Shown here: one piece after another, positions 13,723 to 46,482 of the stretch
How positions within the stretch are numbered: the first letter of the stretch is position 1
How the letters are laid out: each line of letters opens with the position of its first letter
Source: a virus
Taxonomy: Duplodnaviria; Caudoviricetes
Strand: one strand, 5' to 3'
Length of the DNA: 64,000 nucleotides
Virus record (IMG/VR): IMGVR_UViG_3300046167_000798
The notes under the pieces: generated by a model
The model's database searches: none
What the model was told of the DNA's origin: nothing
What the model saw: only the letters and a program-made list of their open reading frames with translations
Position numbers and translations under genes: made by a program

Positions 13723-14784
13723 TTACTTTTCTACTGTAAATGTTAAATCTTTATCACTAAAATATTCTACCACTCCACTTCTTACAGTTTTTATTTCAAT
13801 ATAGTAATCTCTATTATATTCAAAGTTATTTAAATTTAATTTAAAATAGTTACCGATTGCATCACAACTAACCTTTGTATAGTTATCGTTAAATGGTACT
13901 ACTACTTCATCTGTTACTATATCTTTAATTTGATAATAAGTGGTTGATGGTAAATACTTTACATCAGTATAAGCATACTCGTTGGTGTAGGTTTTAAGAG
14001 GATATTTCTCTCTTCCAAAAACTCTAATTGTAGGTTTACTTCCTCTTTTATATACTGTTTTTAGTCTTTTAAATGTTACATGAATATCATCGGCAGTTAA
14101 TGCACTAAGAGAACCAGTTATAAATGATGAATCATCCCAACCAATTCGTAACTTAGGTTGGTATATAGTATTTGTTTCTTTTGAAAAGAATTTTAATTGG
14201 CCATAATCAACTGTATCATTTTCTTTAACCGAATCGTGTTTTAGAATCCAACCTTGATTTGGTATAGTACCAGCAATCCAAGAAGTAATCGAAGGTAATA
14301 CATTCATACTAATATCACTTGTTGAATATGAAAACTCTTGAGATGATGATGAGCCTGTGTACCAAGTTCCTCCCTTTCCATTAAACGAACCAGTCGTTCC
14401 ACTTGCAAATCCATTTCCTAACCAATTAGTAGTTGTTGTTCTTTTGTTCCAACTACATCCATCAGTTGATATATCATCAAATCGTGTTCCGATTCCCACA
14501 TCCCAAGATTGAGAAATAGGATATGCATAAATTGTATAATCAGTAGGAATTTCACTTCCTTCGCTTTCGTTAAGTATTAAATGAGCCGAACTCATTGTTA
14601 CTTCACCACTTGCAATAGAAGCAGATAATGGAGTGGTATCTATTTTAATTAACGTATGAGCTACATCTTTTAAGTTACCATAATAAGTTTTAGATATTTC
14701 TAATATCTCATCCCTACCTGTATTTTGAGTAGGTTGTTGTAAATAAATTGTTGAATCTTTTGATGCTGTTACGAAATAATACAT
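13723..14784 (-). CDS. Baseplate-associated structural protein (DNRLRE/CBM96-like)
   Basis: ASKDSTIY...NTGRDEILEI...SAHLIL...YAYPISQSWDVG...PNQGWILK...QPKLRIGWDD. Its start overlaps the gp6 stop. Confidence 0.5.
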   Translation of the reverse strand: MYYFVTASKDSTIYLQQPTQNTGRDEILEISKTYYGNLKDVAHTLIKIDTTPLSASIASGEVTMSSAHLILNESEGSEIPTDYTIYAYPISQSWDVGIGTRFDDISTDGCSWNKRTTTTNWLGNGFASGTTGSFNGKGGTWYTGSSSSQEFSYSTSDISMNVLPSITSWIAGTIPNQGWILKHDSVKENDTVDYGQLKFFSKETNTIYQPKLRIGWDDSSFITGSLSALTADDIHVTFKRLKTVYKRGSKPTIRVFGREKYPLKTYTNEYAYTDVKYLPSTTYYQIKDIVTDEVVVPFNDNYTKVSCDAIGNYFKLNLNNFEYNRDYYIEIKTVRSGVVEYFSDKDLTFTVEK

Positions 14785-16808
14785 TATACAACCCTCCCTT
14801 TTATATCCTTGTTTGGAAATTTAATCTCAAACACAGAAGGGTCTACTGATGGATATACCATCTTACCTTTTGTTGCTTGTGATATATTATATGAATTTGT
14901 AGAGTAACTTCCATTACATTTATTAGTAATTTCACATTTAGGTACTGATTGTACTCCCTCTACTCCTGCCAATAATAATTCTATTTCAGATATATTAATT
15001 GCCATATTGAAAGTCCAATTATCGATATTAAAATATTCTTTAAGTTCACCTATACACTTAGTAAGAACTTCTCTTTTGTTATATCCACCATAAACTCTAA
15101 TTTCAAAATCAACACCTATGTTGATTATATAACCATCTATAATATTAACACCATCGGTTAACATTCGGTATTCTCCTAGATATGTTTTTAAGTTTTGTTT
15201 GATTGCAGTATTACTTGTTAATCTTTCCAAATTCTTATTAGAATTATATCCAAGAATATATAAGTTAATTGCAAATGGATTGTTTTTTTCAGTTTGATTA
15301 TTTGTTTTACTAGATAAAAACTTTTTTACTTCATTTTTTATTTCTTGTTGAGATAACTTTCTTTCTCCAAGTCCTGTTACTAAACTTGTAAACTCTTCCA
15401 ATGAATCAGGATTAGATAATATTGATGTTGGTGAGTTATTATCAAGTTCTCCATCTGGTGCACAATATGCTTTTGCAATTCCACCAAATTTAGCTGGCAT
15501 AGAAAGTGCTCTTACTTGATAATCTTTTCTTGTTACTGCTCTGTTTTGTGAACCAAAGTTTGCAAGTGAGTTTTCTCTAATTTCTTCAATCGTTTCTGCA
15601 CCTCTACCACCTGTAGCAGGTACTTCGTTTTCTACAGCAACTGATTGTTTACCTTTATTATATAGTTTTAGTTCAGTTGGTGTAAACAATGTAGAATCAT
15701 CATCATATTGAATTTGTGTAATACTAGTTAAATCTCCTTTTTTTACATTCGATTCAACTCCTCCTCCAATTAAGTATCTAACTGTTAGTGTTGTATTTGA
15801 AGGTGCTTGACCATATGATTTAGTTTTTAAGAAATTAGCTGGGTCAAATGAAGCTCCTAATTTATCTATTGATGATTGTAACCCTAACCCAACATTTTTA
15901 AAATTTGGTATTAGTGTTTCATCGTTTGTTGCAGTACCTCCACCAAATATAATTGTAGTTGTATTATCTGCATTTACTTGTGTTGTAAACCTTCTTGAAG
16001 TTTTTAATAATTTTAAAACACTTGGTACTGAAGCAGAATGTTGTTTTAAATCTTTATCATATTGTTCTGTATTTGGGTAATCAACATAAACCATCTCTTG
16101 TGCCAAATAAGGAACTTGATACCATTTGTTTCCATTAGAATCTCGTACATCAAATATATCTATTACATTTTTATCTGCAATTTGTATTTTTGAAAAATCT
16201 TGAGCTGAACCGAATTGTACTTCAACTTCTTTGATTCTAGCAGATATTGCATTAACTTTTTTCTTGATTAGATATTGAGCCGGCTCATTAGTACCATCAA
16301 CTCTTCGATACACACTAACTTCTCTTTCACTATCATCATTGAAATCTATAGCTTCACTTGTTCTAAATGTTACTCCTTCTTTTGATTCGATTACCATTCC
16401 TTGTTTTATTCTTAACGCATATGAGTAATCAGGTTCAACTTTACCCTCACCAATAGATTTAGATGGTACAAGTTGATATATAGATAATTTAGTTAGTGCA
16501 GGATATGTTACCTTTGGTTGATATCCTAGGTATTTTGCTAATGCTAATACATTTTCTTCATCTTGAGCATATAACATCATTGATTCTTTCAATGTGTCAT
16601 CTGTATAGTAAGATAGAGAATCTCCAATAAAAGATGCCATTTCAATGAACATCATACCAGGTGAAGATTCGTTAAAATCAGAATAAGTTTTTGGGAAGTA
16701 TGATTTAGCATACTCAATAATATTATTTCTGAATTGAGAAAAATCTTTATTGAGATACTTTATATCCCTACCATTATTACTTTTAAAATTTGCTGAATTT
16801 AATGCCAT
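14784..16808 (-). CDS. Baseplate wedge subunit, T4 gp6/J-like
   Basis: IKYLNKDFSQFRNNIIEYAKSYFP..Y.DF.E.SPGMMFIE; GGRGAETIEEIR; QNRAVTRKDY. Confidence 0.85.
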   Translation of the reverse strand: MALNSANFKSNNGRDIKYLNKDFSQFRNNIIEYAKSYFPKTYSDFNESSPGMMFIEMASFIGDSLSYYTDDTLKESMMLYAQDEENVLALAKYLGYQPKVTYPALTKLSIYQLVPSKSIGEGKVEPDYSYALRIKQGMVIESKEGVTFRTSEAIDFNDDSEREVSVYRRVDGTNEPAQYLIKKKVNAISARIKEVEVQFGSAQDFSKIQIADKNVIDIFDVRDSNGNKWYQVPYLAQEMVYVDYPNTEQYDKDLKQHSASVPSVLKLLKTSRRFTTQVNADNTTTIIFGGGTATNDETLIPNFKNVGLGLQSSIDKLGASFDPANFLKTKSYGQAPSNTTLTVRYLIGGGVESNVKKGDLTSITQIQYDDDSTLFTPTELKLYNKGKQSVAVENEVPATGGRGAETIEEIRENSLANFGSQNRAVTRKDYQVRALSMPAKFGGIAKAYCAPDGELDNNSPTSILSNPDSLEEFTSLVTGLGERKLSQQEIKNEVKKFLSSKTNNQTEKNNPFAINLYILGYNSNKNLERLTSNTAIKQNLKTYLGEYRMLTDGVNIIDGYIINIGVDFEIRVYGGYNKREVLTKCIGELKEYFNIDNWTFNMAINISEIELLLAGVEGVQSVPKCEITNKCNGSYSTNSYNISQATKGKMVYPSVDPSVFEIKFPNKDIKGRVV

Positions 16809-20686: not shown

Positions 20687-22396
20687 TTAACGTATCTTTT
20701 TACGAACTACATAAGAACCAAGTATCAACACATCCATCTCACAATTTAAAAATGTTTTAATTGCATCTTCTGGTGTGAGAACCATTGTTTGGTCTTTTAA
20801 ATTAAATGAAGTATTAATAACAATTGGAAATCCAATTAGTTTTTCTAGTTCACCGAGTATTTGATAAACATATCTAGCTCTTGTATTTGTTAGAGTCTGA
20901 ACTCTTGATGATTTATCTACATGAGTTATAGATGGTAATTTATTTATAAATCTATCAACTACCTTTACTACTTGATTCATATATGGTATATCAGAATCAT
21001 ATTCAAAATAAGTGGTTAATGCTTCTCTTTTACATATAGGAGCAAATGGTCTGAATCCTTCTCTCTTTTTAATTACTTTATTTAATCGAGATTTCATTTG
21101 AGGGTCACATGGATTTGCGAATATACATCTACTTCCTAATGCTCGTGCACCAAACTCCATTCTTCCTTGAAACCATCCTATAATATTATTTTCAGATATT
21201 AATTCAGCAGTATAAGGTATTAATACATCACTTGGTTTCCATTCATAGTAAACATCTAAGTGATAATCATTAAGTGCCTTTAACATATCTTGTTTACTAT
21301 AATCAGGACCTAAATATGGATTAGTATTATCATGTCTATCAATATCAATACCTTTGTAAAAACTTTCAAGAGCAACTCCAATCGAAGAACCAGCATCTGA
21401 TGGTGCTGGTGGTATCCAAATATTTTGAAACTTTGTTTTTTCTTTTATCTTACCATTTGCAGTTCCATTATAAGCACATCCACCACTCAAACATAAGTTC
21501 GGTGTTTCTGTTATTCTATGTAATCTGTTTAATAATTTAAAGAAATATTTTTCATATTGAAATTGTACCGATGCAGCTAAATCTTTATAATCTTGTGTTA
21601 GTTCTTCTTCTGGTAATCTATTTGATATACCTAAATGTTCTGATAGTTTTGCGTTAAACATATGGTCATCAGACCAATCATATTCAAAATATTCCATATT
21701 TAATTCATATCCACCATCTTTAGTAGAATAAATTATATCTTCAAATTTTAAATTATATTTTTCAGGATTACCATATGGAGCTAATCCCATAACTTTATAC
21801 TCACCCTCGTTTGGTTTGAATCCTAAGAAAGCAGTAAATGAAGAATAAAACATTCCCAATGAATGTGGGAAATCTATACTTTGTAATTCTTTTATTTTAT
21901 TCTTATCACCATAAGATAAAGAAGTTGTTTTCCACTCACCAACACCATCTACTGATAATATAGCTGATGTTTTAAATGGAGAAGTATAGTAGGTATATGA
22001 TAGGTGAGAATCGTGATGATTACCAAAAATAACCTTAGTATTTTTACCTCTATACTTATCTATATTTTTATTTAATAAATTATAAGATTCAGTATTTCTG
22101 TTTATTATTTTTTTTCTATTGAAATATTTCCAAATACCACCTCTTTTTGTAGATTCTGTAATTCTATCTAATTTTGTTATTGGGTTTTCGTAAAAACATA
22201 TCTCAGATATATCTTCTTTGGAAATACTAAATTTATCAAAAAACCAATTTAAGGTATTATGTGGAAATGAAGAATCGTGTTTTATACCTGTGAATCTTTC
22301 TTCCTCACAAGCAGCGATAACTTTACCATCTTTAATCAAAGAGGCAGCTGAATCGTGATATCCACAACTTATTCCTATAACATATTTTACTTTCAT
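20687..22396 (-). CDS. Carbamoyltransferase, NodU/CmcH family
   Basis: GISCGYHDSAA, EEERF..IKH, HHDSH, DGVGE, EGEYKVMGLAPYG, SGGCAYN, SDAG, GARALG, REGFRPFAP, NTSFN. Confidence 0.93.
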   Translation of the reverse strand: MKVKYVIGISCGYHDSAASLIKDGKVIAACEEERFTGIKHDSSFPHNTLNWFFDKFSISKEDISEICFYENPITKLDRITESTKRGGIWKYFNRKKIINRNTESYNLLNKNIDKYRGKNTKVIFGNHHDSHLSYTYYTSPFKTSAILSVDGVGEWKTTSLSYGDKNKIKELQSIDFPHSLGMFYSSFTAFLGFKPNEGEYKVMGLAPYGNPEKYNLKFEDIIYSTKDGGYELNMEYFEYDWSDDHMFNAKLSEHLGISNRLPEEELTQDYKDLAASVQFQYEKYFFKLLNRLHRITETPNLCLSGGCAYNGTANGKIKEKTKFQNIWIPPAPSDAGSSIGVALESFYKGIDIDRHDNTNPYLGPDYSKQDMLKALNDYHLDVYYEWKPSDVLIPYTAELISENNIIGWFQGRMEFGARALGSRCIFANPCDPQMKSRLNKVIKKREGFRPFAPICKREALTTYFEYDSDIPYMNQVVKVVDRFINKLPSITHVDKSSRVQTLTNTRARYVYQILGELEKLIGFPIVINTSFNLKDQTMVLTPEDAIKTFLNCEMDVLILGSYVVRKKIR

Positions 22397-28001: not shown

Positions 28002-28910
28002 TTAATTACTTAATGGTGCTTTAATTGTTGGGTGATATTTGTATCCTTCTATTTCATAATCCCATTCTCCATTTAAAATATCTACGTTAGATAATTTTAT
28101 TGTTGGTAATGTAAAAGAACTTCTTAATCTTTGTTCTTCTGCTTGTTCAATATGATTTTTATATAAATGAGTATCACCTAAGTTCCCAATCAGTTCACCT
28201 GGTTCTAAATTTGTTTCTTCACATAATAAGAGTAGTAGAGTACCATAGGATGCAATATTAAATGGTAACCCTAAGAATGTATCTACTGAACGTTGATTCC
28301 ACATTAGAGATAACTTACCATCGTTTACATAACATTGAAATCCATAATGACAAGGAGGAAGAACTACTAGAGGTAGTTCACTTACGTTCCAAGCTGATAC
28401 CATCAATCTTCTACTATCAGGATTGTTCTTTATATTATCAATAAGTTCTTTGATTTGGTCTTTACCACCTTTGTTTATCTCACCTGCAACTGGTGACCAT
28501 TCTCTCCATTGTTTACCATAGATTGGTCCAAGTTTACCCCAACTAGATGCAAATGATTCATCTTCTTTAATATGTTGTATAAATTCTTTTTGGGTAAACA
28601 TATCATCATGATATTCTGATGGATGTGCTTTACAATATGCTTTATACGCATCTCCATCCCAAATATGACAATTGTTATCAACTAAGTATTTGATATTAGT
28701 ATCTCCTTTTAAGAACCACTTCAATTCAGTCATCATAGTTTTAACTGCCATCTTCTTTGTGGTTAGTAAAGGAAACCCTTCACTCATATCATGTCTAATT
28801 TGTTTACCAAATACAGATATAGTACCTGTACCGGTTCTATCTCCCTTTTCTTTTCCTTCTAATAAGATATCTTGTAATATCCCTTGGTATCTTAAATCTA
28901 AACTATTCAT
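28002..28910 (-). CDS. thyA: Thymidylate synthase
   Basis: DRTGTGT, FPLLTTKK, LGPIYGKQWR, PDSRR, LPPCH, NQRSVDTFLGLPFNIASY, GDTHLYKNH. Confidence 0.97.
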   Translation of the reverse strand: MNSLDLRYQGILQDILLEGKEKGDRTGTGTISVFGKQIRHDMSEGFPLLTTKKMAVKTMMTELKWFLKGDTNIKYLVDNNCHIWDGDAYKAYCKAHPSEYHDDMFTQKEFIQHIKEDESFASSWGKLGPIYGKQWREWSPVAGEINKGGKDQIKELIDNIKNNPDSRRLMVSAWNVSELPLVVLPPCHYGFQCYVNDGKLSLMWNQRSVDTFLGLPFNIASYGTLLLLLCEETNLEPGELIGNLGDTHLYKNHIEQAEEQRLRSSFTLPTIKLSNVDILNGEWDYEIEGYKYHPTIKAPLSN

Positions 28911-39564: not shown

Positions 39565-40218
39565 TTAAAATAATTTTGTTGGGTCACCAAACTGTCTATA
39601 TCTAAATTGTGGGTCTAATCGTTCATTGAGTAGATTAGAATCTATATTAGGTATCGCCCATTCTTGTATTATCTCTAAAGATTTGATTCTATCTTCTCCA
39701 TATAAATCCTCATACCAAGTTATCGGTATATTAAGAATAGTAGATAGTTCTTTAAGTAATTGTTTTGATTCAATCAAATCTACTTGCTTCTTCTTTTGTA
39801 AAAAATTATTAATATATTCAGATGGTATCTCTTCATACTTGTATTTTAAATGTACCGATTTTTTATCATAATCCATTTTGTAATGTAAGTTTATATAACT
39901 TTCCAAGTGGATTTTATAATCTCTCCTATCTAATAAAATAATTTTATCAAATTCTTTTGCAAACAAGGTAATAGAAAATTCTTTATCTTTTGTGTATTTT
40001 GGTAAAGGTAATTGTTGAATATTAGAATTATCAGAAAATAGAAGGTGCTTAACAGCAATATCTGTTTTATATGAATCCCATCTTAGAGGCCATGGATATT
40101 TATTTTTATGCAGGGGTCTATTATATGGTTCAGATATTTTTTCAAAACCTTGGTCAGCTATTCTATAAAGTAGAGTAGATGTTCCTGTTCTAGGTAGAGC
40201 AAGTATTAATACTTTCAT
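39565..40218 (-). CDS. Sulfotransferase-like protein
   Basis: ILALPRTGTSTL PAPS-binding loop; IILLDRRD; ITWYEDL. Confidence 0.65.
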   Translation of the reverse strand: MKVLILALPRTGTSTLLYRIADQGFEKISEPYNRPLHKNKYPWPLRWDSYKTDIAVKHLLFSDNSNIQQLPLPKYTKDKEFSITLFAKEFDKIILLDRRDYKIHLESYINLHYKMDYDKKSVHLKYKYEEIPSEYINNFLQKKKQVDLIESKQLLKELSTILNIPITWYEDLYGEDRIKSLEIIQEWAIPNIDSNLLNERLDPQFRYRQFGDPTKLF

Positions 40219-40904: not shown

Positions 40905-41540
40905 TTAAATTAACTGTTGTTTTCTAAAACTAGAATATACATTAACTATTGGTATATTATATTTTAATAATACTGCAGTTAGTGCACTTCCTTCACCATA
41001 ACCAATTCCATGTCTACTGTACCTATTTAGTTTTTCGTTCTTCCATGTTCGGTTACCAAAATTACGTTCTACAATAGATTGTAATTCTATTATATCTTTT
41101 TTTATATTTTCAAAATCAGTTGTATATGGTAAAGATATTAATGCTTCTTGAACATATATATCTGATTCGTTTTTTATATTTAAATGATTATGTATTTCTT
41201 TTCTTGTTGATTCAAATACATTTGATAAATGTATCGGAGTTGATGTTATATTATATACATAACAAGATTTATCATCATAATCTATGTTGCCATAATATTG
41301 TAATTTATCTACATCAATATAAGTAATTCTTTTTCTTTTTGATTCCATTAAATCCATTAAGAATATCAACTTATCATAATAACTGAATTCTTTCTTTTTA
41401 TATTCGTATGTATCAGAAATGAACCATTCACTACAATCAGTTAATATATTTGTTTTTTTAAAGTTATTAAAAGTTATAATATCTTTCTTCCAATCAAACA
41501 CCAATTCCTTTCCTACACACAATGTTGCAAACTCCATCAT
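40905..41540 (-). CDS. Glycosyltransferase-like hypothetical protein
   Basis: FSYYDKL...ITYIDVD (DxD-like motif). Confidence 0.4.
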   Translation of the reverse strand: MMEFATLCVGKELVFDWKKDIITFNNFKKTNILTDCSEWFISDTYEYKKKEFSYYDKLIFLMDLMESKRKRITYIDVDKLQYYGNIDYDDKSCYVYNITSTPIHLSNVFESTRKEIHNHLNIKNESDIYVQEALISLPYTTDFENIKKDIIELQSIVERNFGNRTWKNEKLNRYSRHGIGYGEGSALTAVLLKYNIPIVNVYSSFRKQQLI

Positions 41541-42031
41541 ATTAAACTTTCTTTTCTAGGATACCAAACTACTAATACAGTTCGGGTTCCTTTTGTTATT
41601 GGAGTTACTTCATGTGGAGATACACTTCCATTATATCTTGCAACATCTCCTCTGTTTCTGAATTGTGTTAGTTCATCATTTAAATGAAAATCTCCTCCCT
41701 CGTATTCATCTTTTAATATTATTACAAATGTATCTGCTGAATTTGTATCTCTATGTCTATTTGAGTATGCTCCAACATTATAATTGAACGTATGTATTGT
41801 TATTGGAATTATATTTTCTATTCCTAAAATATCAGATAAAGCTTTATTTAAATCTTCATTAGTAGTTGAATAATATTCTATTTCAATATTAGGTAATACT
41901 GAATGTCTGTGTTCGTAAATGTGTTCTTGAATTGGTGTTAACTTTCCTTCTTGATTATTCTCTGTTTTACTTGTGGTACTAATCAATTTTTCTAATACAC
42001 AAACTTCTTCTTCTGATATTTTGTAAATCAT
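41537..42031 (-). CDS. 2OG-Fe(II) oxygenase
   Basis: HRD (HxD), YEGGDF, HEVTPITKGTRTVLVVW. Confidence 0.85.
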   Translation of the reverse strand: MIYKISEEEVCVLEKLISTTSKTENNQEGKLTPIQEHIYEHRHSVLPNIEIEYYSTTNEDLNKALSDILGIENIIPITIHTFNYNVGAYSNRHRDTNSADTFVIILKDEYEGGDFHLNDELTQFRNRGDVARYNGSVSPHEVTPITKGTRTVLVVWYPRKESLI

Positions 42032-42543
42032 AATAAATTATTTATGTAAGTAGCTCCACAATTAAAGTTTAATCTAATAGGTGCTTTGTTCCACTTATCT
42101 ACATAAGCATATCCATAATCAGTTCTACTCATTACTTTCTGAATACAATATGCGTATAACTGATATCCTGCGTTTCTTGGTACAACTTTTTTAATTACAT
42201 ATGTTCCACCTGAATAGTTTGAGTTTGGTGTTGGTAAATCTTTTACTTTTTCAATCCAATCATATGTTAAGAAATCACAAGTCCAAAACCAACCACATAC
42301 TTCTCCTTTAAAATATTGTATAAAACAAGAACACCCAACATCAAATCTTTTTTTAAGATTATCAATATCAGGTCTATCTTTCCAATCGGATAGTGTTTCA
42401 TTAATACTATCGATTATTTTCAATAAATCTTTTTCTTGGGAATATTCAGAAATCTCGATGTAAGAGTATCTATCATCAAGGTCACAAGGCATTTTGAAGT
42501 CAGGTGCAAAGATTCGCATCTGAACATATTCATCTTTATTCAT
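42028..42543 (-). CDS. GNAT-family acetyltransferase-like protein
   Basis: VCGWFW, YVIK...RNAGYQL, YVDKWNKAPIRL. Late motif at 42566-42573. Confidence 0.6.
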   Translation of the reverse strand: MNKDEYVQMRIFAPDFKMPCDLDDRYSYIEISEYSQEKDLLKIIDSINETLSDWKDRPDIDNLKKRFDVGCSCFIQYFKGEVCGWFWTCDFLTYDWIEKVKDLPTPNSNYSGGTYVIKKVVPRNAGYQLYAYCIQKVMSRTDYGYAYVDKWNKAPIRLNFNCGATYINNLL

Positions 42544-42580
42544 AGTAACAGTATTAGTTGTTACTTATAAATATAGTTTA

Positions 42581-42724
42581 TTAAGAATGTTTACTTACAA
42601 ATGAAGTTAAAAATTTTGCTAAAATAGAATCAACTCTACTATCTTCTGTTGAAGATAATGCATAAGATGGTCGATTCTTAATATCACTAAATTTTACTTT
42701 TTTATATATTTCTGGCTTTATCAT
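42581..42724 (-). CDS. Small protein, 47 aa
   Basis: MIKPEIYKKVKFSDIKNRPSYALSSTEDSRVDSILAKILTSFVSKHS starts 1 nt after the Hint-protein stop. Confidence 0.65.
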   Translation of the reverse strand: MIKPEIYKKVKFSDIKNRPSYALSSTEDSRVDSILAKFLTSFVSKHS

Positions 42725-42725
42725 A

Positions 42726-45035
42726 TTATTTGTTGTGTACTATTATTCCGTTAGCAATATATGAATGTAACGCATCTACTGTTATGTTATAAACTCGTTC
42801 ATCTTTATCAGAACGAACTATTCTTATATCTTCAATTTTTATCCATTCACCATCTTTGTTAATTTCATCTCCAACTTTTAAAACCTTTGGTTCTTGTCCA
42901 GAAGCATATGGTTCTTGCTCTGGATAGGGTACTAATGATTTCCAACCTTCTTTGGTTAAGAATGGATGTTCTGGTGTGAACTCTATTTTAGTATCATTAA
43001 TTGTATATAGTGATGGCTCGTCTCCTAATGATTTACAAGCATCAGCATGAGAATCAACAGTATGTCTGTGGTCTGTTGCGGTTACGATAGAGGATTGTAT
43101 TGATTCACCATTCCATCCTAAAACAGAATCTCCAACAATAATATCTTCAATTGATTTTACATCACCATTAGATAATGATATTTCAGTTCCTGCTGCGAAG
43201 CAAGTGATGAACTTATTGTGTACCAATATATCTTCAGCAAAGAAGTTGTGATTATCACCAACACTTAAAAGATTATAAACAGTAATTTCTTTTTCTATAA
43301 GTTCGATAGAATTTACTAGGTGTTTATCTAATAGGGATGTTCCATTAAACTTCCAACATACATCACCATCAATTAACTTACCAGCAATTACCCATTCCTG
43401 TCCTTCTACATAAAAAGGATGTTCAAATGTTGTGGTAATTTTAGAACCATCTTTGAAAGTTATAATTACTCCTTCAGTTGATTTAGATTCTTTAACATCT
43501 CCAACGATTGCTTCTTCATGTATATCTTCTTCTAAATTAAAAGAAAGTACTACATCTCCTTTAGCTATATCTTCTATATTTTTTACTTCATCATCGTTTA
43601 TTCTAATTTGTGTACCTGCAACAAAACAGTTGTGAACAATTGGTGTATAGTTACCTACTGAAGATGATATAATGTAACTATCAATTTCTTCAATATCACT
43701 ATCAGCCATCCAAACATCATGGTCTGCAACTGCCATGTATGATGAACTAACCTGAACCAATGTATTATCAGTACTTACTATGAAATGGTCTTGTGTTAAA
43801 TCACCAGCCTGTTCATATTTGATTTCATTTGATGATGTGTTATATACTAATACAGCAAATTCATCTGATGTTAGAATTTGGTCGTTATTCATTAAGTTAA
43901 CTTCAGCAAATAGATTATATGGTGATTGAAATGTATCATGTGATTGAACCTGTGATGCAGATATAATCGAACCATCTGGTAATGTATCTCCTGATGATGT
44001 CCAATTAATAAAATCATCAAGGCTATCTCCATCAGGTAAACCAGGAATATAAAATCCTTTTATACTTTGTGATACACTAAGGTCTGATAATAGTACTGGA
44101 TTATTAGAACTATCAATCATTGAATGAGAAACAAATATACCTGATTTTTTATTTTGCAGATAATTAGTTCCAAACTCAAATGAGTGCTTTACATTAAGTA
44201 TGTTTACTACATTTGATTCAGAATAATCCTCTTGAAATCTTTGTTCATCCGACTGTGGTATTGTAAAGTTACTTTCTACTTTATATCTTCCTATATTTAC
44301 AATTTTTAATCCACTATCAGAATATAATATATCGTAACTTCTAATAGATTGTACTTTTTCATTATCTACTTGAGCTTCATTGTAGTGAAACTTTTCAACA
44401 TGGAATACTGATAAATCAAGTGTATCAATTAAGTTCTGATATCTTTGTGCATCTGTTGCTCCATCTTGTATTCCTAAGAATCCAAACTGAACTGGCATTT
44501 GTGCCCATGTTGCCTTTATTACAACATCTGGTAAATGGTTGTCATCATTTACACTTGAACTTAATAACCCATCGGATTCATAAGCACTTGAAGATGCATA
44601 ATATTCTGGTACCATTGCCGAAGCAGTATATTCATGAAATAAGTTTAATAATTTTGTTTTAGATTTAGCATAAGTTGAATCAAATATAGCAGATTCATCA
44701 TATGCCAATCTTAGTATAAATTTTTCAGAAGAATCTTCTACAACATCAGGATAGATATCATAGGTTCTTTCTTTCTGTAATGTTACTGATGTAATAAAAG
44801 TTGCGTTTGATTCTATATCAGATTGTAGATATTCTACAAAGTTTTCTTGAAATTCTTTATAAATTATAGTAACATTTGTAATACTATTTGTGCTCCAAAT
44901 AGCATATAAATCTGTAAAGTCGTATCTAGTGTCAAATGTATTTGATGTAAATCCTGTATCGGTGTTTACCTCTACCAATCGTAATTCACTATTGGTATCG
45001 ATTACATAATCACTTGAAAATAATGTTCCCTTCAT
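42726..45035 (-). CDS. Permuted ATP-grasp-like domain fused to three tandem Hint (intein-like) domains
   Basis: N-terminal SDYVID...LVEVNTD, then VIKA, VEKF, IRSY. Hint1 44141-43629 (G..IVHN), Hint2 43628-43215 (CFVAGT..TFEH..VHN), Hint3 43202-42732 (CFAAGT..TPEH..VHN). Confidence 0.75.
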   Translation of the reverse strand: MKGTLFSSDYVIDTNSELRLVEVNTDTGFTSNTFDTRYDFTDLYAIWSTNSITNVTIIYKEFQENFVEYLQSDIESNATFITSVTLQKERTYDIYPDVVEDSSEKFILRLAYDESAIFDSTYAKSKTKLLNLFHEYTASAMVPEYYASSSAYESDGLLSSSVNDDNHLPDVVIKATWAQMPVQFGFLGIQDGATDAQRYQNLIDTLDLSVFHVEKFHYNEAQVDNEKVQSIRSYDILYSDSGLKIVNIGRYKVESNFTIPQSDEQRFQEDYSESNVVNILNVKHSFEFGTNYLQNKKSGIFVSHSMIDSSNNPVLLSDLSVSQSIKGFYIPGLPDGDSLDDFINWTSSGDTLPDGSIISASQVQSHDTFQSPYNLFAEVNLMNNDQILTSDEFAVLVYNTSSNEIKYEQAGDLTQDHFIVSTDNTLVQVSSSYMAVADHDVWMADSDIEEIDSYIISSSVGNYTPIVHNCFVAGTQIRINDDEVKNIEDIAKGDVVLSFNLEEDIHEEAIVGDVKESKSTEGVIITFKDGSKITTTFEHPFYVEGQEWVIAGKLIDGDVCWKFNGTSLLDKHLVNSIELIEKEITVYNLLSVGDNHNFFAEDILVHNKFITCFAAGTEISLSNGDVKSIEDIIVGDSVLGWNGESIQSSIVTATDHRHTVDSHADACKSLGDEPSLYTINDTKIEFTPEHPFLTKEGWKSLVPYPEQEPYASGQEPKVLKVGDEINKDGEWIKIEDIRIVRSDKDERVYNITVDALHSYIANGIIVHNK

Positions 45036-45066
45036 ATCGGTTGTTCCTGTTGTATATGGATGTTCT

Positions 45067-45432
45067 TTATATAAATATACCCTTTTTTGATTTTGATTTG
45101 TCTTTTGGAGTATTATGATTAAGTTTAGTTTCGTATTTTACAATCTTAGAGCACATTTCATAATTTTCTGTATTCGTAAACCATTTTTTTGATTCACTTA
45201 AGAAATCTTGATATTGTGTTTTTGGTATAGATAATAAAGCATTCATATGTGGATGAGCCATAAAAACTACATTTGGCCAATCTAAATCTATTGCCTTAAA
45301 TACTTCAGGTGTTATTTGTTTAAATATAGAATCACCTCTTGAATTTAGAAATCTTTTTACTCTTGGAGATGCTCCTTCATATATAAGATATCGTTTCCAA
45401 CTTAATGTATTAAATGATTTTCCTTTTTGCAT
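45067..45432 (-). CDS. Hypothetical protein with a UVR-like C-terminal helix
   Basis: WFTNTENYEMCSKI. Confidence 0.5.
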   Translation of the reverse strand: MQKGKSFNTLSWKRYLIYEGASPRVKRFLNSRGDSIFKQITPEVFKAIDLDWPNVVFMAHPHMNALLSIPKTQYQDFLSESKKWFTNTENYEMCSKIVKYETKLNHNTPKDKSKSKKGIFI

Positions 45433-46482
45433 TTATACTCTCCTTTCTTTTCTCCCAAATAAACCTCTTCTTCCTATGTTATCATCATCATTATCATCAA
45501 CAATAGTTGGTGGGGGAGATATTACTGTGGTTCTTGGTGCTTCTGTAACAGACTTATTTGTTTCGGTTTGAATTGGAGTATTAGTTACTATTGGTGTATC
45601 ATTTGCTTCTCCTGATTCTATCTGTGCATCTATATCATCTTGTAATGGAAATCCAAGTTTATCATTTATATTTATAGAGTTATCTAATATACCAGCAGAT
45701 ATTTCATCATAAGTATCAACATCCATAGTACTTAACTCTTGAGCATCTATTATCTGTATTTCAGTACTAGTGTTATCAACTAAGTAATCTATATATCTTA
45801 ATACATCCTCAATTGTGGTTATCGTATCACTAATCTCTACTTGTGCATAATCTTCAGGTATACTAAATTTGGGTGATTTAGCATAATTTCCTATTAAAGA
45901 TAATGGTAATTGCATAATAGTTACAGTATCTATGTTAACGTATGGGTTTGTAGATTGTGAGTATGCATCAAGTTCTCTTTTAAATTTATCAGATGTCCAT
46001 TTAGAATTAACCTCCCCATCATCATCAACAAAATGTATAACAAATCTAAATGAAGAATCATCTAACACATTAACATCTTTATGAGAGTTAGGAGTAAATT
46101 GAATTGAGTTACCCTTAAACTTTCCATTATATTGGATTGACCCACCACTTGATTTATAAGAATCAGTAGGTTGTTTTTCTAAGTCAGCAAAAGGATAGTT
46201 GTTTCTTAAAGAACCAAATATATCTTTTTTTGTATATACCTTAGTATCAACAGTACTAGTTCCTTTAAATGGAGCAGGAAGTGATTCATCAAATCTTACA
46301 CCTCCCAATTCTTCCATCCTTAAATTAGATACACCAGTAATTGCATCAAAAGATTCTTCGGAAGTTTCTTTTACCGTTTCGTTTGCTGTTTCTACTATAT
46401 TAATAGGCTTAACAGTATTACTCGGTTTAGGTACTGAGCTTCTCTTTTTAAATATAGGGATTAGATTTGGTCCTTTTTCCAT
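45433..46482 (-). CDS. Hypothetical late protein
   Basis: 349 aa, TATTTATA at 46486-46493. Confidence 0.6.
   Translation of the reverse strand: MEKGPNLIPIFKKRSSVPKPSNTVKPINIVETANETVKETSEESFDAITGVSNLRMEELGGVRFDESLPAPFKGTSTVDTKVYTKKDIFGSLRNNYPFADLEKQPTDSYKSSGGSIQYNGKFKGNSIQFTPNSHKDVNVLDDSSFRFVIHFVDDDGEVNSKWTSDKFKRELDAYSQSTNPYVNIDTVTIMQLPLSLIGNYAKSPKFSIPEDYAQVEISDTITTIEDVLRYIDYLVDNTSTEIQIIDAQELSTMDVDTYDEISAGILDNSININDKLGFPLQDDIDAQIESGEANDTPIVTNTPIQTETNKSVTEAPRTTVISPPPTIVDDNDDDNIGRRGLFGRKERRV

Follow-up and report, generated by a model that had tools for sequence, protein, structure and literature searches.

A permuted ATP-grasp/Hint fusion protein and its 47-residue partner in uncultured aquatic T4-like phages

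Circularly permuted ATP-grasp enzymes are generally recognised by a D...ExN metal motif that comes before, rather than after, the K, E and R motifs. Among the non-permuted ATP-grasp enzymes, LysX and ArgX act with LysW, a protein of about 50 amino acids (aa) that is encoded beside them and whose acidic C-terminal tail is the part that serves as substrate. Bacterial intein-like (BIL) domains are known from inside secreted or variable proteins, or from positions flanking ubiquitin-like domains. Escherichia coli YgiC and YjfC are peptide-spermidine ligases, and the fungal enzyme Cp1B is an acid-amino acid ligase (PMC12568646; RefSeq product name). This study deals with a 64,000-nucleotide (nt) stretch of viral DNA (IMG/VR record IMGVR_UViG_3300046167_000798; hereafter the window), in which a gene for a 769-aa protein joins a permuted ATP-grasp domain to three Hint domains and is directly followed by an open reading frame (ORF) of 47 codons. 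On balance, it is somewhat likely that the two genes encode a two-subunit permuted ATP-grasp carboxylate-amine ligase, the precursor of which sheds BIL-type self-cleaving modules from its C-terminus.

The phage ATP-grasp domain shares with YgiC/YjfC and with the synthetase domain of glutathionylspermidine synthetase (GspS) the permuted order, with the D...ExNxDT strands first, and a structural alignment over residues 1-294 (VIA Z 9.0-9.4). It differs from them in being about 90 residues shorter and beginning exactly at the Mg-binding strand, in its fusion to Hint domains, in its predicted need for a separate 47-aa subunit, and in the lack of a significant sequence-family match. The best structural matches (residues 1-286, Z 8.1-9.5, Foldseek E about 1e-5) belong to the eukaryotic glutathione synthetase (GS) family, which includes nematode GS-like effectors, homoglutathione synthetase, and the E-64 ligase Cp1B. 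These are likewise carboxylate-amine ligases of the permuted type, but they are 410-520 aa long, with dimerisation and lid elements that are missing in the phage protein, and they have neither a Hint fusion nor a small partner. On the Hint side, A-type BIL domains and the BIL domains of Tetrahymena BUBL are the top folds for the first phage Hint domain (Hint0), while the other two (Hint1 and Hint2) share with them the Cys1 residue, the TxxH motif, and the terminal HN. In contrast to known BIL domains, the phage domains stand in tandem at the extreme C-terminus, the last one is trailed by Lys alone, and Hint0 has no N-terminal nucleophile. The phage pair resembles LysW and LysX/ArgX in that a protein of about 50 aa is encoded beside an ATP-grasp enzyme that it is predicted to bind; however, LysX/ArgX are non-permuted, and in the phage partner the C-terminus reads K-H-S and nearly the whole chain is buried in the prediction.

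The 769-residue protein

The gene of the 769-aa protein lies on the minus strand (42726-45035), and its first 295 codons (44151..45035, minus strand) encode the ATP-grasp domain, which was delimited by AlphaFold2 (AF2) fold, motif order and conservation. An alignment of residues 1-469 with 63 homologues was the basis for the AF2 model, which has a mean predicted local distance difference test (pLDDT) score of 91.5. In a VIA comparison, residues 1-286 matched the GS-like structure 5oet (Z 9.5, root-mean-square deviation (rmsd) 4.5, 210 residues aligned), followed by YgiC 7uka (Z 9.4, rmsd 4.5, 205 aligned), GspS 2io7 (Z 9.0, rmsd 4.7, 209 aligned), the permuted ATP-grasp protein 3n6x (Z 8.3), and Cp1B (Z 8.1). 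Foldseek gave E-values from 1.2e-6 (YjfC) to 5.5e-5 with a probability of 1.00. The permuted enzymes align collinearly from residue 1 on, reaching 286-294, whereas the non-permuted RimK, LysX/ArgX, and TTLL can be aligned only beyond residue ~50, as a permutation would predict.

The order of the motifs agrees with the fold. The Mg-binding strands with D9 and E22-x-N24 come first, followed by a pre-ATP-grasp part (K60, R109), the lid and central part (K174, E213), and finally R232; D9, E22, and N24 thus precede the K, E, and R motifs, as a preliminary description of this DNA had stated. In a profile alignment (hhalign) with E. coli YgiC, residues 8-95 fall on YgiC 101-190, and the segment D9...LLE22-x-N24-x-D26-T27 falls on YgiC 101-122 (D...LLENNADT). 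Among 60-63 homologues of 30-50% identity, D9, E22, T25, D26, K60, R109, Y112, and D119 are invariant, and N24, K174, and R232 are conserved in at least 90%. Judged by their motifs, the invariant or near-invariant residues D9, E22, N24, K60, R109, K174, and R232 are of the kind expected of an active ATP-grasp; ATP-binding roles for K174, E213, and R232 are suggested by motif resemblance rather than by residue-level superposition. Of the 150 best family representatives in a profile search, essentially every one has this domain from residue 1 on. By modelled fold and motif, residues 1-295 are a circularly permuted ATP-grasp of the glutathione synthetase/glutathionylspermidine synthetase/YgiC type. 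The preliminary description, which had named a permuted ATP-grasp at this end of the protein, is therefore sustained by a domain that does take up the ATP-grasp fold in its model.

The 769-aa protein has no match to the Pfam families GSP_synth, CP_ATPgrasp_1, or CP_ATPgrasp_2. It is treated here as a separate family in the same fold branch, since no significant Pfam ATP-grasp match was obtained. A profile search of Protein Data Bank sequences returned BIL domains for Hint0 only and nothing for the ATP-grasp part. The top 50 matches of a BFVD fold search appeared to be mostly Hint-domain proteins with no evident viral ATP-grasp relative, an absence that is not to be taken as evidence. Separately, a 303-aa metagenomic protein (P0287) combines a class II tRNA-synthetase fragment with residues ~65-207 of the ATP-grasp family; this protein is probably a chimera of assembly or gene calling.

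Pfam detects only two Hint domains behind the ATP-grasp domain, at residues 470-607 and 612-768 (PT-HINT, 5.8e-17; Intein_splicing, 5.7e-19). The third, Hint0 (residues 296-469; 43629..44150, minus strand), has a degenerate Hint/BIL fold and is recognised by that fold and by a BIL profile match, which bears out the triple Hint of the preliminary description. In the model, Hint0 superimposes on the BIL domain 2lwy with an rmsd of 1.7 A over 138 residues (VIA Z 18.9), and it also matches Tetrahymena BIL2 6tmm (Z 17.8) and hedgehog 1at0 (Z 16.6); the family profile matches BIL domains over the same region with an E-value of 7e-4. It has Gly299 in place of the intein N-terminal nucleophile, and E449, D452, H468, and N469 are invariant. 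Position +1 after its terminal HN is C470 here and Ala in the commonest relatives (HN-AP-C). A class-2 or class-3 intein mechanism was considered for Hint0 but rejected, as the domain lacks a block-F Cys and its +1 position is not a Cys throughout the family.

Hint1 (residues 470-607; 43215..43628, minus strand; Pfam PT-HINT and Intein_splicing) starts at Cys470, has a TFEH block B, and ends in VHN, followed by Lys608. A four-residue linker, KFIT (residues 608-611; 43203..43214, minus strand), leads to Hint2 (residues 612-769; 42729..43202, minus strand; Pfam Intein_splicing over 620-768), with Cys612, TPEH, a terminal VHN768, and the final Lys769. The +1 residues of these two domains are thus K608 and K769, no extein follows the last Hint, and neither domain contains a homing endonuclease. 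Neither has the marks of a canonical splicing intein, which are a Cys, Ser, or Thr at +1 and an insertion inside a host protein. The same pattern holds across the family: 291 of the 299 Cys1-Hint units in 180 members end in HN and 281 have TxxH, and the +1 residue over the 291 units is K in 181, R in 70, F in 26, Y in 7, W in 3, L in 2, and I and Q in one each, but never C, S, or T. Furthermore, 145 of the 180 members terminate in HN-K with 0-1 residue beyond. Since Cys1, TxxH, and HN are present without a +1 Cys/Ser/Thr, Hint1 and Hint2 are, as far as their residues tell, A-type BIL-like autoprocessing domains and not splicing inteins.

What follows Hint0 varies considerably. Its copy number of further Hint domains ranges from 0 to 3 across the family, and inter-Hint linkers in relatives are 1 to about 12 residues long, with Arg or Lys nearly always as the first residue. 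Family-wide, the linker after Hint0 is absent, A-P, S-P, or 8-13 residues long with P-[FY]-G-[AV]-G-R. In deeper-branching members the HN of Hint0 is followed by short tails of 4-10 residues, by Cys-rich tails of 23-85 residues, or by a Cys-rich segment plus Peptidase_S74, and the C-terminal residue of the precursor is Lys in most members of every class. As variable pieces follow an invariant HN, the ATP-grasp domain with Hint0(HN) is seen as the constant part, and the remainder is an exchangeable, probably removable C-terminal piece.

Several further observations concern these tails. Cys-rich tails were seen in P0266, P0273, P0275-P0277, P0285, P0286, P0292-P0300, and P0303, and at loci L090-L092; the shorter ones repeat a six-Cys spacing of about C-x1-2-C-x4-6-C-x4-C-x3-C-x2-C and mostly end in Lys. 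In P0284, P0301, and P0282, the tandem Hints are replaced by a Cys/Tyr/Gly-rich segment plus the Peptidase_S74 intramolecular-chaperone domain, which is self-cleaving and typical of phage fibres; for P0282, the S74 assignment derives from an S74-like motif only. At one related locus (L005:8373-8906), a separate 177-aa ORF that consists solely of a Hint domain parts the large gene from the ORF of the small partner.

The 47-residue partner

The 47-aa ORF (42581-42724, minus strand) starts 1 nt past the stop codon of the 769-aa gene (TAA-T-ATG). Each of the 83 related loci examined has a homologue, 43-55 aa long, no more than a few nucleotides downstream of the large gene; members without Hint1 and Hint2 are among them. 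Four of these loci (L057, L066, L070, and L079) each have a divergent small-ORF homologue of 50-55 aa that was missed by the hidden Markov model, and a small ORF is also found downstream in three deep-branching members with Cys-rich tails. The 47-aa ORF is therefore a real gene. Its product has no match in Pfam or PHROGs. The most deeply conserved part is a C-terminal amphipathic helix ending in K-H, here K-H-S. The final position is not fixed (S, L, T, M, or 1-2 extra residues), and K-H is missing from some members. All members of the main clade have Tyr7, which deep-branching members lack.

A complex was predicted from the alignment of residues 1-469, an alignment of the small protein, ATP, and two Mg. 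The interface obtained an ipSAE of 0.92 (0.93, 0.90, and 0.92 in three runs), whereas none of three controls exceeded 0.00. Of 80 solved complexes, 58 attain the mark used for ipSAE, as do 2 of 110 mismatched pairs, a calibration that applies only roughly here, given our own alignments and the ligands riding along. The runs share at least 95% of contacts, and the partner has a pLDDT of at least 91. In the predicted complex, 44 of the 47 partner residues (1-12, 15-23, 27-28, and 30-46) touch the ATP-grasp/Hint0 core: the N-terminal strand lies on Hint0 residues 435-437 and beside K283, the middle lies on enzyme residues 251-253, and the C-terminal helix lies on residues 8, 10, 18, 20, 231, 233, and 235 and on the helices of 117-141. 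As the contact residues 8/10 and 231/233/235 alternate with D9 and R232 along their strands, the C-terminal helix probably covers the sheet face opposite the residues for Mg and ATP.

With so much of it against the enzyme, the 47-aa protein looks like a bound subunit that bridges two domains rather than a free precursor peptide. Adjacency throughout the related loci and the predicted complex together support the functional tie between the ORF and the ligase that had been proposed in the preliminary description. Its further suggestion that the 47-aa product may be the modified target, offered beside a virion protein or a host target, is weakened, as the product is almost wholly buried in the prediction and shows no leader/core layout.

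Proposed activity and rival explanations

In the preferred reading of a two-subunit ligase, the conserved unit would consist of the ATP-grasp ligase fused to the degenerate Hint0, plus the 47-aa bound subunit. The C-terminal helix of the latter would sit on the catalytic beta-sheet, on the face opposite the Mg/ATP residues, and its N-terminal strand would be added onto Hint0. All of the closest structural relatives of the ligase couple an amino acid or a polyamine to either a small acid or the C-terminus of a peptide; by analogy with them, the phage enzyme would use ATP to phosphorylate a carboxylate, which it would then join to an amine. To judge from their intact residues, Hint1 and Hint2 would be active BIL-type domains without a downstream nucleophile, and Hint0 would retain only the C-terminal His-Asn. 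The intact catalytic residues of Hint1 and Hint2 and the HN of Hint0 suggest cleavage on either side of Hint1 and of Hint2 as well as directly following N469, so that the precursor would cut itself at N469|C470, N607|K608, T611|C612, and N768|K769. These cuts would liberate an ATP-grasp-Hint0 core of roughly 53 kDa.

Several points weigh against this ligase reading. With a Z of about 9 and an rmsd of 4.5-5.3 A, the ATP-grasp match is only moderate; the domain is shorter than YgiC and has no counterpart of its first ~93 residues, and among the 63 homologues there are only one match to GSP_synth (E 0.046) and two to Dala_Dala_lig_C (E 0.09), all below the cut-offs. Self-cleavage is argued from residues only and ligase catalysis from relatives. 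The placement of the helix on the back face was derived from residue alternation along the strands, and the C-terminal K-H of the partner lies near the conserved 117-122 motif in the predicted complex, so that a LysW-like role as both partner and substrate may apply. Lastly, the reading does not account for the retention of 0-3 Hint copies, or of other tails at the C-terminus, by these phages.

The model of the preliminary description, a cassette in the manner of ribosomally synthesised and post-translationally modified peptides (RiPPs), has the 47-aa product as a precursor that is ligated or cyclised by the ATP-grasp enzyme and tailored by a GNAT acetyltransferase, a 2-oxoglutarate (2OG) oxygenase, and a glycosyltransferase. 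The strict adjacency of the ATP-grasp gene and the small ORF and the one Tyr that is invariant in the main clade would suit such a cassette, as would the surroundings of the pair: in 57 dereplicated loci, uncorrected for relatedness, modifying genes are commoner within 3.5 kb downstream (n=51) than within 3.5 kb upstream (n=45), with 22/51 versus 10/45 for 2OG oxygenases, 16/51 versus 1/45 for sulfotransferase-like genes, 8/51 versus 2/45 for GNAT-like genes, and 6/51 versus 0/45 for GT-A genes. Yet no tailoring gene is conserved, the maximum being 43%, and such genes abound throughout these phage regions. The predicted complex leaves no free core segment, and the small protein has no leader/core division, a variable last residue, and no Tyr7 in deep-branching members; the leader-plus-core precursor and the dedicated, conserved tailoring set by which RiPP/graspetide clusters are recognised were thus not found. 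To our knowledge, the known graspetide ligases are also non-permuted ATP-grasps. Hence this model is considered unlikely. The small protein might instead be partner and substrate at once, with its C-terminal carboxylate (...K-H-S) activated and joined to an amine, giving a tag that is capped with a polyamine or conjugated to a protein. In favour of this, the carboxylate at a peptide C-terminus is what all the nearest relatives activate, conservation of the small protein reaches deepest at K-H, partner residues 42-46 lie on the invariant 117-122 segment in the predicted complex, and LysX/ArgX-LysW complexes are among the weaker structural matches (Z 5.7-6.2). Such a carrier or tag is nevertheless improbable in view of the varying last residue and tail length, the members without K-H, the position of residue 47 outside the confident contacts, and the absence of an acidic tail of the LysW type.

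Two other explanations turn to the C-terminal region of the large protein. Cyclisation of Asn469 in Hint0 could free the downstream piece, which in this phage would be the remnant once Hint1 and Hint2 have removed themselves, and the ATP-grasp domain could ligate or cyclise this piece via its C-terminal Lys carboxylate. The unit of ATP-grasp, Hint0, and small subunit would then be a ribosome-templated peptide release-and-ligation system: Hint0 Asn cyclisation, together with BIL or S74 self-removal where present, would free a Lys-ended C-terminal peptide, in other family members a six-Cys or larger Cys-rich peptide, and its carboxylate would be joined to an amine by cyclisation or polyamine capping. 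This would match the constancy of HN before a part that varies (1-3 Hints, 4-10-residue tails, 23-85-residue Cys-rich tails, or Cys-rich plus S74) and the Lys at the precursor end in most members of every class. Both the release step and the system built on it are entirely inferential, the linker between Hint0 and Hint1 has zero length here and that between Hint1 and Hint2 is just KFIT, linkers are not conserved, and the Cys-rich tails could be small metal-binding domains that stay attached; we give neither much chance of being right. Finally, the ATP-grasp-like domain could have no catalytic role and serve within a virion or injected protein for structure or binding, with the Hints or S74 as folding or maturation aids like the chaperones of tail spikes. 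Distant members do carry Peptidase_S74, as is typical of phage fibres and spikes, a PHROG with the annotation virion structural protein is a weak match of the Hint region (E 3.6e-4), and the window also holds baseplate and fibre-like genes. However, invariance falls on exactly those residues that make up the Mg/ATP/acyl-phosphate set of an ATP-grasp, and the immediate neighbours (dCMP deaminase, PhoH, NT5C) are metabolic and not structural. This explanation is very unlikely.

Genomic setting and distribution

G+C content is about 30% in the window, where the minus strand holds essentially all genes. The 769-aa/47-aa pair is surrounded by dCMP deaminase, PhoH, NT5C, HSP20, UvdE, and MazG-like genes. 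Downstream of the 47-aa ORF, and outside the conserved core, lie three variable neighbours on the minus strand, namely a GNAT-like gene (171 aa; 42028-42543), a 2OG-Fe(II) oxygenase gene of a prolyl-hydroxylase-like family (164 aa; 41537-42031), and a GT-A fold glycosyltransferase-like gene (211 aa; 40905-41540), with ATGA overlaps between successive genes (two overlaps). The 164-aa protein matches Pfam 2OG-FeII_Oxy_3 (E 8.6e-7). The 171-aa and 211-aa proteins have no match in Pfam or PHROGs. The model of the latter (pLDDT 84) has a GT-A fold, with VIA Z from 10.9 to 10.0 to CHSY3, WbbM, Manic Fringe, LgtC, and PBCV-1 A64R, and its DxD motif (D76, D78) is invariant in eight homologues. The 171-aa protein is probably a GNAT, as its phmmer homologue at one related locus (L069) matches Acetyltransf_1 at 8.6e-7, its positional counterpart at another (L006) carries Acetyltransf_1, and its Atlas feature neighbours are GNAT clusters with scores of 0.94-0.96.

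The labels given to these genes in the preliminary description are upheld directly for the oxygenase (Pfam) and the glycosyltransferase (fold and DxD), while the GNAT label is probable, with indirect backing from homologues and Atlas neighbours. The gene coordinates of that description, the 1-nt gap, the ATGA overlaps, and the positions of two upstream motifs (below) were also correct. The conserved tailoring cassette that it had drawn from them was not recovered. GNAT-like, 2OG-oxygenase, and GT-A genes are each near the pair in 12-43% of dereplicated relatives and do not consistently co-occur, and the small ORF alone is universal. Modifying enzymes are enriched downstream of the pair, yet they form no conserved cassette, and the three genes are facultative neighbours in a variable genome region rather than fixed parts. 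As regards other ORFs nearby, a 217-aa ORF beyond PhoH (39565-40218, minus strand) has a P-loop-like PRTGTS motif, and its homologues weakly match Sulfotransfer_4 (E 0.003); its sulfotransferase-like type is the second most frequent downstream neighbour. On the upstream side, a 121-aa ORF (45067-45432, minus strand) recurs in 10/45 loci and a 349-aa ORF (45433-46482, minus strand) in 6/45; the 121-aa protein is a member of a large virus-only cluster without a Pfam family.

The motif TATTTATA stands at 45070..45077 (minus strand), 34 nt ahead of the 769-aa start and overlapping the end of the 121-aa ORF, and again at 42566..42573 (minus strand), 22 nt ahead of the start of the GNAT-like gene. 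Counted over both strands of the window it is at chance level (22 found versus 21 expected), but its strand and position are strongly biased: the coding strand has 18 copies compared with 4 of the complement TATAAATA. Eleven of these 18 fall in the roughly 13% of non-coding sequence; six copies stand 18-22 nt ahead of a start codon, and three stand 3 nt ahead of one. Of 61 distinct related loci, 45 likewise have TATTTATA at a distance of 15-45 nt before the orthologous gene. To judge from this distribution, it is a real and conserved promoter-like element, and probably a promoter or other initiation signal of this phage group. Examples on the minus strand are found at 2168, 3302, 10610, 17866, 20127, 22400, 36480, 42566, 45070, and 46486, and the motif precedes, among others, a fibre-sized ORF and a carbamoyltransferase gene. 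In coding-strand orientation the T4 late box reads TATAAATA, of which TATTTATA is the reverse complement. A T4 late promoter was considered and rejected, since TATAAATA occurs merely four times on the coding strand and never upstream of these genes; the late expression previously proposed for the locus is not supported, the motif being reversed relative to the T4 late box. RNA-library contigs of four studies span the 769-aa gene, and one reaches into the small ORF. They were not counted as evidence of expression, because transcription, its strand, and its timing cannot be read from contigs, which may also stem from carried-over DNA.

Minus-strand genes for a Nol-like carbamoyltransferase (20687-22396; PHROG E 1.7e-114), a baseplate wedge subunit (14784-16808), and a thymidylate synthase (28002-28910) help to place the phage among T4-like myophages; the fibre-sized ORF of the window encodes 1762 aa. 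The closest match of its PhoH is from a Flavobacterium myophage (47% identity). The exact 769-aa protein is indexed in 125 blocks of an assembly collection and is encoded on contigs from seawater metagenomes, the longest being 273 kb, and no near-identical DNA of the region was found in deposited phages. From gene content, seawater contigs, the missing match among deposited phages, and the nearest PhoH, the source is an uncultured aquatic T4-like myophage.

An exhaustive profile search of 1.84 billion representatives yielded 345 clusters at 50% identity, and a relative is encoded by 88 IMG/VR stretches, of which 80 loci were retained. A tblastn search with the N-terminal region at E<=1 gave no homologue in 50,697 deposited phage genomes, no Pfam or PHROGs family covers the N-terminal domain, and full-text literature searches on these themes found no paper on an ATP-grasp/Hint fusion. 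The pair is thus abundant and conserved in uncultured aquatic T4-like phages. Its domains are of known kinds, while the family, the architecture, and the pairing with a micro-subunit are, as far as found, new.

The pair unites acyl-phosphate ligation with Hint-type (thio)ester/succinimide cleavage, and together these could make or attach modified peptides; if the release-and-ligation system were true, the combination of intein and ATP-grasp chemistry would be a new route to such peptides. It also presents a micro-protein as a predicted obligate enzyme subunit, and the minimal self-cleaving BIL modules with a +1 Lys could serve protein engineering. If polyamine or peptide ligation holds true, the pair would add a novel type of auxiliary function to those of ocean phages.

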